Virus record (IMG/VR): IMGVR_UViG_2671181189_000003 | Reading direction: 5' to 3' (one strand) | Source of the DNA: a virus | Taxonomy: Duplodnaviria > Heunggongvirae > Uroviricota > Caudoviricetes | Length of the DNA stretch: 9,009 nucleotides | Shown: piece after piece, positions 2,289 through 9,009 of the stretch | Numbering within the stretch: the first letter of the stretch is position 1 | Layout: every line of letters begins with the position of its first letter | The notes under the pieces: model-generated | The model's input: only the letters and a program-made list of their open reading frames with translations | What the model was told of the DNA's origin: nothing | Databases searched by the model: none | Made by a program: the position numbers and the translations under genes

Positions 2289-3745
2289 TGCCTATTCAGC
2301 AACTTCCGCTTATGAAAGGTGTCGGCAAAGACTTCCGAAACGCCGACTATATCGACTATCTGCCAGTGAATATGCTGGCTACACCCAAAGAAATCCTGAA
2401 CAGCAGCGGATATCTTCGCTCATTCCCGGGCATTGCCAAACGTTCTGACGTGAACGGTGTATCTCGCGGCGTCGAGTACAACATGGCGCAGAATGCTGTT
2501 TATCGCGTGTGTGGCGGCAAGCTGTACAAAGGAGAAAGTGAAGTCGGTGATGTTGCCGGAAGTGGTCGTGTATCAATGGCGCATGGTCGGACATCACAGG
2601 CGGTAGGCGTTAATGGTCAACTGGTCGAGTATCGCTATGATGGCACGGTCAAAACCGTCTCAAACTGGCCTACAGACAGTGGATTCACTCAGTATGAGTT
2701 AGGTTCAGTTCGCGACATTACGCGCTTACGTGGGCGTTATGCGTGGTCAAAAGACGGAACTGATTCATGGTTTATCACTGACCTTGAAGACGAATCTCAT
2801 CCTGACCGTTACAGCGCACAATATCGTGCCGAGTCTCAGCCTGACGGCATCATCGGTATCGGGACATGGCGAGACTTCATCGTCTGCTTTGGTTCATCGA
2901 CTATTGAATATTTCTCCCTGACTGGCGCAACCACCGTTGGTGCCGCTTTGTATGTTGCACAACCATCGCTGATGGTGCAGAAAGGCATTGCCGGAACTTA
3001 CTGCAAAACGCCATTCGCTGATTCGTATGCGTTTATCAGCAATCCGGCAACGGGTGCGCCGTCTGTGTATATCATCGACTCCGGTCAGGTGTCACCAATT
3101 GCCAGCGCGAGCATTGAGAAAATCCTCCGCTCCTACACTGCTGATGAACTGGCTGATGGTGTGATGGAATCGCTGCGATTTGATGCTCATGAGTTGCTGA
3201 TTATCCACCTTCCGCGTCACGTCCTCGTGTACGACGCATCTTCAATCGCCAATGGCCCACAATGGTGTGTGCTGAAAACAGGTCTGTATGACGATGTGTA
3301 CCGCGCTATCGACTTCGTTTACGAAGGCAATCAGATAACGTGCGGCGATAAGCTGGAATCTGTTACCGGGAAACTGCAATTCGATATCAGCAGCCAGTAC
3401 GACAAGCAACAGGAACACCTGCTGTTTACTCCACTCTTCAAAGCGGATAACGCCAGAGTGTTCGACCTTGAGGTTGAATCGTCAACTGGCGTTGCGCAGT
3501 ACGCCGACCGCCTTTTTCTCTCTGCAACCACTGACTGCATCAATTACGGGCGTGAGCAGATGATTGAGCAGAATGAACCGTTCGTTTACGACAAGCGTGT
3601 TTTGTGGANNNNNNNNNNNNNNNNNNNNNNNNNNNNNNNNNNNNNNNNNNNNNNNNNNNNNNNNNNNNNNNNNNNNNNNNNNNNNNNNNNNNNNNNNNNN
3701 NNNNNNNNNNNNNNNNNNNNNNNNNNNNGCTCAGATAAGGATTGA
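2288..3745 (+). CDS. Tail hub / tail accessory factor, P22 gp10-like; 3' portion masked, end uncertain (about 3706 to 3745)
   Basis: ATG at 2288 overlapping the gp4-like stop; 440 unmasked residues [61 protein letters not shown]... consistent with P22 gp10 (about 472 aa) by sequence memory and synteny. If the N-run length is faithful and holds no stop, the frame ends at TGA 3743-3745, 4 nt before the tail-needle ATG. Confidence 0.8.
   Translation: MPIQQLPLMKGVGKDFRNADYIDYLPVNMLATPKEILNSSGYLRSFPGIAKRSDVNGVSRGVEYNMAQNAVYRVCGGKLYKGESEVGDVAGSGRVSMAHGRTSQAVGVNGQLVEYRYDGTVKTVSNWPTDSGFTQYELGSVRDITRLRGRYAWSKDGTDSWFITDLEDESHPDRYSAQYRAESQPDGIIGIGTWRDFIVCFGSSTIEYFSLTGATTVGAALYVAQPSLMVQKGIAGTYCKTPFADSYAFISNPATGAPSVYIIDSGQVSPIASASIEKILRSYTADELADGVMESLRFDAHELLIIHLPRHVLVYDASSIANGPQWCVLKTGLYDDVYRAIDFVYEGNQITCGDKLESVTGKLQFDISSQYDKQQEHLLFTPLFKADNARVFDLEVESSTGVAQYADRLFLSATTDCINYGREQMIEQNEPFVYDKRVLWXXXXXXXXXXXXXXXXXXXXXXXXXXXXXXXXXXXXXXXXXSDKD
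3610..3728. other. Masked/undetermined sequence (119 N) covering the gp10-like 3' end
   Basis: Run of n characters seen directly in the sequence. Confidence 1.
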
Positions 3746-5054: not shown

Positions 5055-5796
5055 ATGTTATATGCATTTAAGCTGGGCAGAAAACTGCGCGGCGAGGAAC
5101 CTTATTGCCCTGAAAAAGGCGGGAAAGGTGGCAGTTCTGATAAAAGCGCAAAGTATGCAGCAGAAGCCCAGAAGTATGCTGCAGACCTGCAAAATCAGCA
5201 GTGGCAGACGATCATGAAAAACCTTGCTCCGTTCACGCCTCTTGCGGAGCAGNNNNNNNNNNNNNNNNNNNNNNNNNNNNNNNNNNNNNNNNNNNNNNNN
5301 NNNNNNNNNNNNNCTTCAGAACCTTTCCAGTTTAGAAGGTCAGGGGCAGGCACTTAATCAGTATTACAACTCTAAGCAGTATAAAGACCTTGCAGGGCAG
5401 GCGCGTTACCAGAGTCTTGCTGCTGCGGAGGCGACGGGTGGACTTGGTTCGACAGCCACAAGCAATCAACTGGCTACGATCGCGCCGACACTCGGTCAGT
5501 CTTGGTTATCAAATCAGATGAGCAATTACAACAATCTGGCAAACGTTGGGCTTGGTGCGCTGCAAGGTCAGGCAAACGCCGGGCAGACGTACGCCAACAA
5601 CATGAGCAGCATTGCACAGCAAAGCGCAGCTCTTGCCGCTGCTAATGCCAATAAACCATCAAGTCTTCAGACTGCAATTAGCGGTGGCACGTCTGGTGCG
5701 ATTGCCGGTGCAGGTCTTGCCAGCCTTTTGGGAACATCAACGCCTTGGGGCGCTGGTATTGGTGCTGGTATCGGATTGCTTGGCTCGTTGTTTTAA
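5055..5796 (+). CDS. Ejection (E) protein, P22 gp7-position; interrupted by N-run, with upstream and downstream parts in different frames as given
   Basis: RBS GGGAG at 5044-5048 and ATG at 5055, giving MLYAFKLGRKLRGEEPYCPEKGGKGGSSDKSAKYAAEAQKYAADLQNQQWQTIMKNLAPFTPLAEQ, then the N-run. Downstream, an ORF open from 5314 to TAA 5794-5796 is Gln/Asn/Ala/Gly-rich and ends in the hydrophobic Gly-rich tail GAIAGAGLASLLGTSTPWGAGIGAGIGLLGSLF. Combined length is about 246 aa, against about 229 aa for P22 gp7. The 61-nt mask leaves the halves offset by +1. Confidence 0.65.
5253..5313. other. Masked/undetermined sequence (61 N) inside the gp7-like gene
   Basis: Run of n characters seen directly in the sequence. 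Confidence 1.
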
Positions 5797-5805
5797 GGGG
5801 GAATC

Positions 5806-7137
5806 ATGGCTACTTGGCAAGGAACAAACGGCGGATTGTTGGCTGGTATCGGCGGCGTCAACTCAAACGCTCCGAGCGTAAATGACATCGGCAATACGCT
5901 TCAGCTTATCAGGCAGAACAATGATATTGAGCGTTCAGGCGCTAACAATGTTGGGCTGACTGCTTTGCAAGGTCTTTCAGGTATTGCGGGTGTTTTTCAG
6001 CAGGAAAAGCAGGCTCAGCGGCAGAAAGAATTTCAGCAGGCGTACGCTAATGCTTATGCGTCTGGTGATCGCGGTGCTTTGCGTCAGTTGGCTACTCAAT
6101 ATCCAGACCAGATTGAATCCGTTCGTAAAGGCATGGGATTCATTGATGAAGAGCAGCGTAATTCTATCGGCACCTTAGCGGCTGGCGCACGCCTTGCGTC
6201 ATCGTCTCCAGAAGCAATGCAATCATGGCTGCAAAACAACGCCGGTGAGTTAGCTCGTGTTGGCGTTAATCCTCATGACGTCGCTCAGATGTACCAACAG
6301 AACCCGCGGCAGTTCGGCGAATTTGTCGATCACCTGGGGATGAACAGTCTCGGGCCCGAAAAATACTTTGACCTACAGGATAAAATGCAGGGTCGCCAGG
6401 TTACCATGCGCGGTCAGGATCTGGATTCGCAAACCGCCGCTCGGAATCAGGCAATCACAATGCGCGGACAAGATATCCAGGCGAATTTAGGTCAGCAGCG
6501 CATTAATCTGGACGCAGAAACAAACCGCATTAACAACGAAAATAAGCGCCTTGACCGGATGCTATCAGCAGAAACTAACGACCTGAAGCGCCAGGAAATA
6601 CAGAGCCGCATAGCAGCCAACAACCAGCAGTTGCAGCAGAAGCAGCAAGCGCTAAATGATGGCTACAAAGACGGCATCAACACCCTCACAACCAGCATGT
6701 TCACTCTGAACGATATCGTTAGTTCTCCTTCACTTAAGAGCATTACAGGCTTACGTGGAGTAATCCCCAACGTTCCAGGCTCACAGGCTGCAGACACTCA
6801 GGCACGACTTGATACCTTTAAATCACAAGCATACCTGACAGCGGTTCAGGCCATGCGAGGCATGGGCGCACTTTCTGATGCCGAGGGCAAAAAGCTCGAC
6901 CAGGCTGTTGGTTCGCTGCAGAACTCGCAGAGCGAGGAGTCCTTTCGTCGCAACGCTGGCGTCATCCTGAACACGCTCAACCAGAAGCGTAATGAGGCGG
7001 TTGGTAAGTACGTTCAGCAAAACGGTATCAAGCGAGTGGAAGCGCCTCAGGCTTCTATAGATTACCTGAAGCAGCACCCCGAGCTGTCAATCGACTTCAT
7101 TAATCGCTACGGATATCTTCCATCTTTGGGGCAGTAA
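5806..7137 (+). CDS. Ejection (E) protein, P22 gp20-position (443 aa)
   Basis: Strong RBS AAGGGGG at 5795-5801 and ATG at 5806. Gly-rich N-terminus (MATWQGTNGGLLAGIGGVNS), a long Gln/Asn/Arg-rich predicted helical region and an internal TMRGQD repeat. Stop TAA at 7135-7137 sits directly against the next ATG. Assignment is by synteny and composition. Confidence 0.7.
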   Translation: MATWQGTNGGLLAGIGGVNSNAPSVNDIGNTLQLIRQNNDIERSGANNVGLTALQGLSGIAGVFQQEKQAQRQKEFQQAYANAYASGDRGALRQLATQYPDQIESVRKGMGFIDEEQRNSIGTLAAGARLASSSPEAMQSWLQNNAGELARVGVNPHDVAQMYQQNPRQFGEFVDHLGMNSLGPEKYFDLQDKMQGRQVTMRGQDLDSQTAARNQAITMRGQDIQANLGQQRINLDAETNRINNENKRLDRMLSAETNDLKRQEIQSRIAANNQQLQQKQQALNDGYKDGINTLTTSMFTLNDIVSSPSLKSITGLRGVIPNVPGSQAADTQARLDTFKSQAYLTAVQAMRGMGALSDAEGKKLDQAVGSLQNSQSEESFRRNAGVILNTLNQKRNEAVGKYVQQNGIKRVEAPQASIDYLKQHPELSIDFINRYGYLPSLGQ

Positions 7138-8868
7138 ATGGCTAATTACCGTGATTTGTTAGAGCAGGCTGGCGCACGTTACGGTGTGCCAGAAGGGTTG
7201 ATGACTGCACTGGGTGCCAAGGAGTCTTCTTACAACCCTGCCGCAGTAAGCTCCGCCGGGGCTGTAGGATTGACTCAGGTCATGCCTGGGACATGGCGTG
7301 ATATGGGTTATACCGATGAGCAAATGCAAAACCCCGAATATCAGGCTGACGCTGGCGCGCGCTATCTGGCAAAGATGTACCAGCAGTTTGGTAACTGGCG
7401 TGACTCTCTTCAGGCTTATCACGACGGTCCCGGCAACGTTATGAAGGCAAAGCGTGGTGAATATACGCCAGGACCTGAAGGCCGCGGTTACGTTGATGAT
7501 CGCTTTGCTCAATGGGCTGGTGACCCGGTGACAGACTCAACAGTCGAACAGCGCGCCACCTCTGCAAAGGTACATCCTCAGCAAGACCCTAACAACCCGT
7601 TTGCACAACTGGAAGTACAGTCATCCGAACAAGTATCGGCATCAGGTGTGCAGTCAGACCCAAATAATCCATTTGCTCAGATTGAGCAGCAGGCAGCCAG
7701 TCAGCAGCCACCTCAACCCGTAAGTTCTGTCGCACCGAAACCTGTTCAGCAACAAACAGTTAATCAGGCCAATAATGCACCAACACGGGAAGAACCATCA
7801 TTGATGCAACAAGCTGGCGATTGGCTCACTGGTGGTCAAAGTGCAGGGCAAATTGCAGAACAGGCTGGTCGTGGTCTGGTAAACATACCATTTGACGTAT
7901 TGCAGGGTGGCGCAAGTCTGATTAATGCAATCAGTCAGGGGCTTGGGGGGCCAAAAGTATTGGATGATGTTTATCGTCCAGTAGACAGACCGACAGACCC
8001 CTACGCGCAAGCTGGAGAGTCAATAGGCGGTTATCTTGTTCCTGGAGCAGGTGTAGCTGGAAACATGGTCATTGGTTCTCTCGCTGACGCGGCGAATCAA
8101 CGGGGTGATTTTGCCGAAAATGCCGCTATTAATGCCGGACTTAGCATTGCTACGCATGGCCTGATAAATGGCGTTACCCGTGGTGTTCGTGGTGCATCAA
8201 ATATAATTAGTGGCAATAAAACATCTGCACAGAGAGCGACCACTGCGCCAACAGAAACATCACCATTCTCCGGTGATGCCGCTGCAGCAACAAATCCTGC
8301 GGTTCATGCCGCAGAGGCAAGAGTAGCACAAGGTGTACCAATGACGCCTGCGACGAAGAACCCAGAGGAAGTCGTTCGCACAGTAGCAGCACAAAAAAGG
8401 CCAAATCTCGCTTCATCGCTTGATGAACTAGATATCAATCCTCAGGCTGAAGTTCTGGAGTCTGCTGAAAGGCTTAATGTTGATTCATTACTCCCTTCAC
8501 ACTTTTCCGGGAACGAGCAATACAAGGCAGTTGAGCAAGCAATCAAGTCCCGTGCGGGTTCTGCTCTACAGGTGCAGGAAAATGAAGCAATCAGGCAGCT
8601 AGCACAGGGCGCGGGTGAGATAATTGATCGCGTTTCCGGTGCAAAAGATGCTCTTGGTATGAGCGACAAGTTTATTGATACGGTCAATGGAAGAATGTCT
8701 GCGCTGATGAAACGAAGCGACCAGCTTTATCGCAATGTTGAAAAGGCGATGCCTGCAGGTGCAAAAATTGATGCGCCATCAACAAGGTCAATGCTCAAAC
8801 AGGTGGCAGAAGATCTTGGCGGGATGAAAAACCTTGACCCTATTGAAAAGAGAGTTGAGGTAGCCTGA
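7138..8868 (+). CDS. Ejection (E) protein, P22 gp16-position, with an N-terminal soluble-lytic-transglycosylase-like domain (576 aa)
   Basis: ATG at 7138. Residues about 20-100 carry the SLT family motifs: KESSYNP (candidate catalytic Glu29, codon 7222-7224), [14 protein letters not shown] (GLxQ motif) and AYHDGPGNV (AYNxG-like). These are followed by the tandem DPNNPFAQ repeats, a Gly/Ala-rich hydrophobic segment (about residues 296-350) and a helical C-terminus. Stop TGA at 8866-8868. Confidence 0.75.
7585..7686 (+). repeat. Two in-frame copies of a DPNNPFAQ(L/I)E peptide repeat, 72 nt apart, within the gp16-position gene
   Basis: gaccctaacaacccgtttgcacaactggaa (7585-7614) and gacccaaataatccatttgctcagattgag (7657-7686) encode [10 protein letters not shown] and [10 protein letters not shown], with many synonymous differences between the two copies. 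Confidence 0.8.
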
Positions 8869-8880
8869 GTTTAACGGACA

Positions 8881-8913
8881 CTCCTTCCTGAAATAGAATG
8901 GCATCAGAAGGAG
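8881..8913 (+). promoter_or_regulatory. Hairpin pairing an anti-Shine-Dalgarno sequence (CTCCTTC) with the downstream SD (GAAGGAG); a candidate sigma70-like promoter overlaps the region
   Basis: CTCCTTC at 8881-8887 is the exact reverse complement of GAAGGAG at 8907-8913 (19-nt loop). TTAACG (8871-8876), a 17-nt spacer and TAGAAT (8894-8899) resemble -35/-10 elements. This is the only real intergenic gap in the operon. Confidence 0.3.
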
Positions 8914-8993
8914 CTAATAATGAGCAGAAAAACCCAACGTGAACCGCCCCGGGAATCCTGGAGACTAAACTTCCTGAGAAAGAGGTAAACAGG

Positions 8994-9009
8994 ATGACTA
9001 AAAATACTC
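8994..9009 (+). CDS. Start of a downstream gene (only 5 codons in the window: MTKNT...); identity unknown
   Basis: ATG at 8994 preceded by AGAGG at 8981-8985. It does not begin with the MTDI... N-terminus I recall for P22/Sf6/HK620 tailspikes, so it may be an accessory (immI-like or moron) gene rather than the tailspike. Confidence 0.3.

Follow-up and report, generated by a model that had tools for sequence, protein, structure and literature searches.

Genomic organization of the region

The window analysed here (the whole stretch of 9,009 nt from the virus record IMGVR_UViG_2671181189_000003) ends in what a preliminary description had taken for a regulatory spacer behind the last ejection gene of a phage operon, with a Shine-Dalgarno (SD) sequence and its upstream complement, promoter-like hexamers and a 22-codon open reading frame (ORF), followed by the start of a further gene. 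Reading the sequence directly, we found all of these motifs at the positions at which they had been listed. Megablast of positions 8300-9009 resolved the region into three unrelated pieces, namely phage DNA up to 8855, DNA of the insertion sequence IS600 at 8856-8940 and DNA of the insertion sequence IS629 at 8940-9009, the T at 8940 being common to both elements. In a base-by-base comparison the identity to the Shigella phage Sf101 stops exactly at 8855 and the identity to IS600 starts at 8856. The following features were assigned:

7138-8855, + strand: 5' part of a P22 gene-16-type ejection/lytic transglycosylase gene, from Pfam and the comparison with Sf101
8856-8940, + strand: left-end remnant of IS600, 85 of 1264 bp, 100% identical to a complete IS600
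8856-8882, + strand: left inverted repeat (IRL) of IS600, beginning TGAGG, 19 of 27 positions matching the reverse complement of the right end
8866-8868, + strand: TGA stop of the truncated ejection ORF, inside the IS600 IRL
8871-8899, + strand: candidate indigenous promoter of IS600, consisting of TTAACG (-35, in the IRL), a 17-nt spacer and TAGAAT (-10, in the hairpin loop)
8881-8913, + strand: anti-SD hairpin in the leader of IS600, with arms at 8881-8891 (5') and 8904-8913 (3', including the SD) and a loop at 8892-8903
8907-8913, + strand: SD sequence GAAGGAG of IS600 orfA, 6 nt before the PGAP-annotated ATG
8920-8988, + strand: chimeric 22-codon ORF, MSRKTQREPPRESWRLNFLRKR, with TAA at 8986-8988
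8940-9009, + strand: left end of IS629 (IS3 family), IRL TGAACCGCCCCGGGAATCC..., multi-copy and running past the end of the window
8982-8985, + strand: SD sequence GAGG of IS629, before the orfA ATG
8994, + strand: ATG of IS629 orfA (MTKNTRFSPEVRQRA...; OrfA starts MTKNTRFSPEVRQRAV...), the full copy of the element being found in S. flexneri

The ejection ORF (7138-8868) encodes 576 aa with the Pfam domains SLT and Phage_P22_gp16 and is 99.6% identical over 8300-8855 to gp13 of Sf101 (genus Lederbergvirus), which is annotated as ‘transglycosylase / lytic tail fiber’ and has 911 aa as compared to the 576 aa in the window. It retains 573 native codons, the last of which (Val) obtains its third base from the start of IS600, while the final three residues E-V-A (Glu-Val-Ala) and the TGA come from the inverted repeat of that element. 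The homologue of gene 16 in Sf101 runs on for 339 codons past the position corresponding to 8855 and is followed by a small gene in reverse orientation and then by a tail protein gene. Judged from these alignments, the ejection gene is without its natural end here and is cut at 8855 by IS600, and the supposed regulatory spacer is the first 85 bases of IS600, cut in turn by IS629 as a second insertion sequence. The preliminary description had the last ejection gene ending at this point and being followed by the only real intergenic gap of an otherwise overlapping operon; neither view holds, as the stop at 8866-8868 and everything else after 8855 is insertion-sequence DNA. The 576-aa protein should consequently be annotated as a truncated pseudogene product and the prophage as defective, the tailspike being absent at the locus. 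More generally, the combination of a short last gene, a spacer and a micro-ORF can mean that a gene has been truncated by an insertion sequence.

An exact look-up of the truncated 576-aa protein led to chromosomes of Shigella flexneri, e.g., CP001383.1 (strain 2002017), where the genes upstream are homologues of the P22 portal, scaffold, coat, gp4, gp10, gp26, gp14, gp7 and gp20. This protein appears in 1949 indexed blocks of the collection, so that the junction is common across S. flexneri, and positions 8301-9009 of the window are present exactly in six S. flexneri chromosomes. Taken together, it is very probable that the region represents nested ends of IS600 and IS629 in a decaying P22-like (Sf101-like, Lederbergvirus) prophage of S. 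flexneri.

The window also contains three runs of N, at 1417-1528 (112), 3609-3728 (120) and 5253-5313 (61), which stand in for 59, 77 and 12 real bases of the S. flexneri chromosomes and therefore produce false ORF breaks (e.g., in the gene-7 homologue at 5055-5796) and false ORF starts in the coat/gp10 region. A 49-nt insertion with a frameshift in the gene-7 homologue was rejected on these grounds, being a run of N in the window.

Expression signals at the left end of IS600

As a reference for IS600 we used a complete 1264-bp copy from E. coli E2865 (L009 1601-2864), which is bounded by TGAGG...CCTCA and a 3-bp target duplication (CGC) and which PGAP names ‘IS3-like element IS600 family transposase’, with a CDS containing a programmed frameshift. 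Positions 8856-8940 of the window are 100% identical to L009 1601-1685, and the transposase start given by PGAP (L009 1665) corresponds to 8920. The remnant thus spans the inverted repeat, the promoter, the 5' UTR hairpin, the ribosome binding site (RBS) and the first seven codons of orfA. This segment is multi-copy, occurring at 6066 places on chromosomes and plasmids in 3057 of the 5426 complete E. coli genomes. Compared to IS600 (IS3 family, IS3 group; Shigella and E. coli), the segment shares the TG-initiated inverted repeat, leader, RBS and orfA start base for base, but it is without orfA past codon 7, orfB, the right end and a visible target duplication. The element in the window accordingly shows the identity and the 5'-TG inverted repeat of IS600 but not the DDE transposase made from orfA and orfB by -1 frameshifting; ending after orfA codon 7, the copy is fragmentary and not a functional member, i.e., a dead remnant. 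The reference copy of E. coli E2865 itself (L009 1494-2970) sits in ninF of a lambdoid prophage, and many Stx-converting phages carry several IS600 left ends per genome.

The preliminary description had proposed a sigma70-type promoter, TTAACG-N17-TAGAAT, and a perfect SD sequence in front of an ATG at 8920. Both motifs are present, but both belong to IS600 and not to the phage. A promoter scan of 8500-9009 returned exactly one site, with 9 of 12 matches and with TTAACG at 8871-8876 and TAGAAT at 8894-8899, as compared to 0.3 ± 0.6 sites in shuffled sequences; the SD and the ATG are those of IS600 orfA.

CTCCTTC at 8881-8887 is complementary to GAAGGAG at 8907-8913, and the resulting anti-SD hairpin, which had been suggested earlier from the sequence and for which RNA folding had been proposed as a check, was recovered as both the minimum free energy (MFE) and the centroid structure in every context folded. 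It comprises 10 pairs with one bulged C and a 12-nt loop (-10.7 kcal/mol). Its energy is unexceptional (z = -1.36; 20 of 200 shuffles fold as well), as is that of the whole IS600 leader (z = +0.26), whereas the SD of IS600 pairs with sequence upstream of it with a probability of 0.99, versus 0.56 when the upstream part is shuffled, the native value being reached by 1.3% of shuffles. An interpretation of the hairpin as intrinsic terminator was rejected, as it is not followed by a T-run and the scan of 8500-9009 gave no terminator on the + strand. Rfam holds no family matching the region, the sole match being noise (Noro_CRE, E = 0.83). The candidate promoter, a weak one, the RBS, the SD of which is strong, and the anti-SD hairpin form a coherent module, the native one of IS600. 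What looks regulatory at the end of a phage operon can in other words turn out to be the usual signals for the expression of an insertion sequence.

Conservation of the leader hairpin in distant relatives

The left end of IS600 (85 nt) is identical in 15 of 17 copies, and the other two differ only at the position of 8936, outside the hairpin. Since variation within IS600 was thus uninformative, we turned to loci in GTDB genomes that encode relatives of the IS600 OrfA (42-58% OrfA identity), from Geobacter, Duganella, Massilia, Paraburkholderia, Nitrospira, Polaromonas and others. Their left ends show an IRL core, either TGAGGTAGCCTGA...GGACAC or TGACCTTG...CGTAC, and their leaders measure 62-68 nt. 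With few exceptions, the MFE hairpin begins right after the IRL core and places its 3' arm over the SD, while the stems differ by lineage, with inner helices such as CUUGGUA/UACCGAG, UUUGAUA/UGUCAAA, ACCCU/AGGG and GCUGAU/AUCAGU. Over 44 leaders, the probability of the SD being paired upstream averages 0.83 versus 0.63 with the upstream part shuffled, and in 20 of the 44 fewer than 5% of shuffles reach the native SD pairing. The value for shuffled leaders is as high as about 0.6 because the leaders are pyrimidine-rich. In a Psychrobacter subgroup the occlusion of the SD is weak or lacking.

When the leaders of the relatives were aligned with plain MAFFT (A1, A2), the result was either no consensus helix or four outer pairs only, because the 3' arms are out of register, and an alignment to a covariance model was therefore used. 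This model, which was built from eight distant relatives only and with IS600 left out, detects 8856-8922 of the window end to end with 36.9 bits (E about 1e-6). Model R1 also matches the right end of the complete IS600 copy, weakly. In the covariance-model alignment 84.9% of cells pair, versus 37-50% with the partners slid by one to three columns, and double changes occur in 9 of 14 pairs (shuffled mean 5.4; 9 was reached by none of 500 shuffles); as the alignment is fitted to the structure of the model and the sequences are related, these shuffle counts are supportive figures rather than probabilities. Counts of G-U versus A-C combinations on the same model-fitted alignment (45 versus 27) were discarded as unusable owing to misregister in the outer helix.

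The loop of the hairpin holds a -10-like hexamer (at least 4 of 6 matches, A2 and T6 included) in 40 of the 44 leaders, typically 7-10 nt before the SD, compared to 18.6 ± 3.1 in shuffled sequences, while the -35 element is poorly conserved among the relatives. An SD complement, a hairpin in the leader and its conservation in relatives, i.e., the hallmarks of an RBS-sequestering hairpin, are hence all found. The hairpin is a real feature of IS600 and is conserved in distant relatives. The earlier suggestion of an occlusion hairpin was thus right in kind, but the element to which it was assigned was the wrong one.

The inverted repeat around the -10 hexamer might instead act as a DNA-level site, for example as operator for a dimeric OrfA, or might be a chance complement of the SD. 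There is precedent for the former, as OrfA of IS2 binds beside the weak promoter in the IRL (PMC3299598) and OrfA represses the IRL promoter in other IS3-family elements, and the weak energy z-score of IS600 taken by itself as well as the pairing of the SD in shuffled leaders in about 60% of cases would be expected if chance were at work. Neither would account for stems whose sequences differ wholly among relatives while pairing and position are kept, nor for a 3' arm that always lies over the SD. In addition, 35 of 44 leaders fold better on the sense than on the antisense strand, the mean difference being 2.9 kcal/mol, and the sense folds hold 51 G-U pairs, an asymmetry which favours an RNA structure over a DNA palindrome. 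We therefore regard a DNA site or a chance complement as improbable.

A potential mechanism of insulation from read-through

Elements of the IS3 family have a weak indigenous promoter just inside the IRL, as described for IS2 (PMC3299598), and in IS2 and IS911 this promoter lies partly inside the IRL (PMC3299598). From the loop position of the -10 hexamer, shared by IS600 and 40 of 44 relatives, a transcription start within the 3' arm is predicted. In IS600 the element's own transcripts would begin some 7 nt past TAGAAT, in the vicinity of 8905-8907, and would lack the 5' arm CUCCUUC, so that the SD would be free and the mRNA translatable. Transcripts entering from outside, in this case those of the phage late operon, would hold both arms, so that the SD would be sequestered and orfA left untranslated. 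The hairpin might in this way insulate the transposase gene from fortuitous activation by read-through.

RNA structures of comparable effect, which cover the RBS or the start codon, are known or have been proposed for other elements. IS200 hides its translation signals in RNA structure (PMC3196728), protection of IS10 and IS50 from read-through by RNA structure is discussed in a preprint (bioRxiv 10.1101/2025.01.24.634351), and for Tn10/IS10 such protection is attributed to Davis, Simons & Kleckner 1985, as cited in PMC2965389. Structures at the 5' end can block expression when an insertion sequence sits in a transcribed region (PMC2965389), and the IS3/IS2/IS600 transposase family is among those listed with such 5' elements (PMC2965389). 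As in IS10/Tn10, IS50 and IS200, the SD complement of IS600 is predicted to lie upstream of the element's own start, so that only external transcripts would carry both arms. Unlike these, IS600 belongs to another family of insertion sequences and has its -10 hexamer in the hairpin loop, and the insulating role of its hairpin is putative. In the literature searched we found no description of an occlusion hairpin in the IS600 leader other than the general statement in PMC2965389.

By analogy, the combination of hairpin and promoter most likely represents an ordinary self-protection design of insertion sequences. At this locus the module has become a relic, IS600 having lost 1179 of its 1264 bp and kept 85. 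The point that is mildly new is the clade-wide conservation of an anti-SD hairpin with the -10 in its loop at left ends of the IS600 type; it fits the principle known from IS10, IS50 and IS200 and may be modestly useful to the study of transposon regulation. It is tempting to go further and to speculate that the whole IS600 clade, from Shigella to Geobacter, Nitrospira and the Burkholderiales, shares a self-insulating left end in which the choice of promoter decides on translatability, and that the orphan module in the window has been co-opted for orfA of IS629. We put this forward tentatively, and as a whole it is rather doubtful.

The chimeric ORF and the IS629 left end

The 22-codon ORF opening at 8920, for which control by a leader peptide had been considered, is indeed present with its TAA, but it is a fusion of two insertion sequences. 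Its first seven codons (MSRKTQR) come from the beginning of IS600 orfA, and codons 8-22 with the TAA derive from the IRL and leader of IS629. The native IS600 OrfA (MSRKTQRYSKEFKAEAV..., 100 residues) and the ORF of the window part ways at 8941, i.e., after codon 7, because IS629 begins there. An ORF existing only through the IS600/IS629 junction does not behave as a leader peptide of the attenuation type, and the sequence identifies it as an accident of nesting; it should not be annotated as a gene.

Positions 8940-9009 are multi-copy as well (22787 places in 3553 E. coli genomes). In S. flexneri CP001383.1 the complete element is 1306 bp long (L007 11803-13108) and has a matching right repeat, IRL and IRR both reading TGAACCGCCCCGGG. 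Over its full length it is 98.6% identical to records deposited as ‘IS3 family IS629’, and the genes called on it match Pfam HTH_Tnp_1 and rve, the latter in OrfB. Identity, inverted repeats, the helix-turn-helix of orfA and the rve domain of orfB all place it in IS629, with orfB being broken. IS629 also goes by the names IS1203 or IS3411-like. Compared to an E. coli copy, the S. flexneri copy lacks 4 bp (GTGC) at L007 12380 (IS629 position 578) and has 12 substitutions. Due to this deletion it measures 1306 and not 1310 bp and orfB is broken (called as 222 aa), so that the copy at this locus is probably unable to make its own transposase. It differs from deposited IS629 in length (1306 versus 1310 bp) and in having unrelated flanks without target duplication.

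The gene starting at 8994 is orfA of IS629, which explains why its first codons (MTKNT) are unlike those of a tailspike gene; it had been rightly supposed not to encode the tailspike. In the IS629 leader, AUCCUG (8955-8960, in the inverted repeat) can pair with CAGGAU (8990-8995), which overlaps the start codon. The predicted pairing may reflect the same kind of sequestration of translation signals as in IS600; the fold of the IS629 leader is no better than that of shuffled sequences (z = -0.49).

Given this arrangement, promoter, RBS and micro-ORF of the IS600 remnant could have been exapted to drive IS629 orfA and to couple its translation to that of the micro-ORF. The micro-ORF stop at 8986-8988 lies 5 nt before the IS629 ATG at 8994 and right after the SD at 8982-8985, a ribosome on the micro-ORF would open the AUCCUG/CAGGAU pairing over the IS629 start, and the junction is fixed in many S. 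flexneri genomes. It is the geometry that suggests this reading; the leader structure which the ribosome would open does not exceed the shuffled background, orfB is broken by the 4-bp deletion, leaving no sign of selection for expression, and clonal descent accounts for the wide occurrence of the junction. We thus consider such an exaptation quite unlikely.

Across the complete E. coli genomes the IS600/IS629 junction was not found; 75 records have the two elements close together, where they always form separate pieces, spread over 255-580 bp.

The wider locus and its history

Extension downstream, which had been proposed as a check on the window, leads through IS629 directly into the core chromosome and to no accessory genes. 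The right end of IS629 adjoins core psiF-phoA (L007 13109 onward), 8 nt past the end of psiF, and psiF-phoA is carried by 5426 of 5426 E. coli genomes. As IS629 is directly followed by psiF-phoA, the locus lacks the other part of IS600, the 339 codons that would complete gene 16, and the tailspike region. IS629 is flanked by ACG on the left and ATC on the right, which means that there is no target duplication.

These findings bear on the boundary between a structural operon and an accessory cassette that had been suspected here by analogy to P22, where the region after gene 16 holds sieA and immI (mnt-arc-ant). The likeness to this region and to its equivalent in Sf101 is confined to the position after a gene-16-type gene; the DNA after 8855 has no homology to either, and the genes found downstream in Sf101 are absent at the locus. 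In place of an intact gene 16 followed by single-copy accessory DNA, we find a gene 16 truncated at 8855, then multi-copy insertion-sequence DNA and then core chromosome. That a phage-encoded spacer bounds the late operon and an accessory or lysogenic-conversion cassette of the sieA/immI kind, under the control of a leader peptide or hairpin, has practically nothing left to recommend it: all the motifs are there and the next gene is no tailspike, but the breakpoints, together with the copy numbers of the two segments, refute the reading, with the Sf101 gene continuing past 8855 towards its small reverse gene and tail protein, both 8856-8940 and 8940-9009 being mobile and multi-copy in thousands of E. 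coli genomes, the micro-ORF being fused across the junction of the two elements and the downstream gene being a transposase orfA.

For the nested insertion sequences, we infer the following order of events. IS600 would have inserted into the gene-16-type ejection gene after base 8855 of the window, and IS629 would later have inserted into IS600 orfA at codon 7/8 (8940). At the right end of IS629, DNA could then have been rearranged, either by deletion or by recombination between IS629 copies, so that the parts of IS600 and gene 16 lying beyond it, together with all DNA farther downstream, were removed or relocated from the locus. The region is an ordinary scar in a decayed S. flexneri prophage; it is ordinary because both insertion sequences are catalogued, published S. 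flexneri genomes contain the locus, and the proposed mechanism belongs to a known type. The main value of the present result lies in the correction.

In strain CP058589.1 (L003 11600-17000) this IS629 is itself interrupted by another insertion, of about 2.26 kb, with the flanking matches overlapping by 9 nt. An independent case is seen in E. coli 504239 (NZ_CP025859.1 1297186-1303255), where IS629 interrupts a ‘phage DNA ejection protein’ gene of a P22-like prophage, adjoining a truncated dsdX, at a site other than that of the window.
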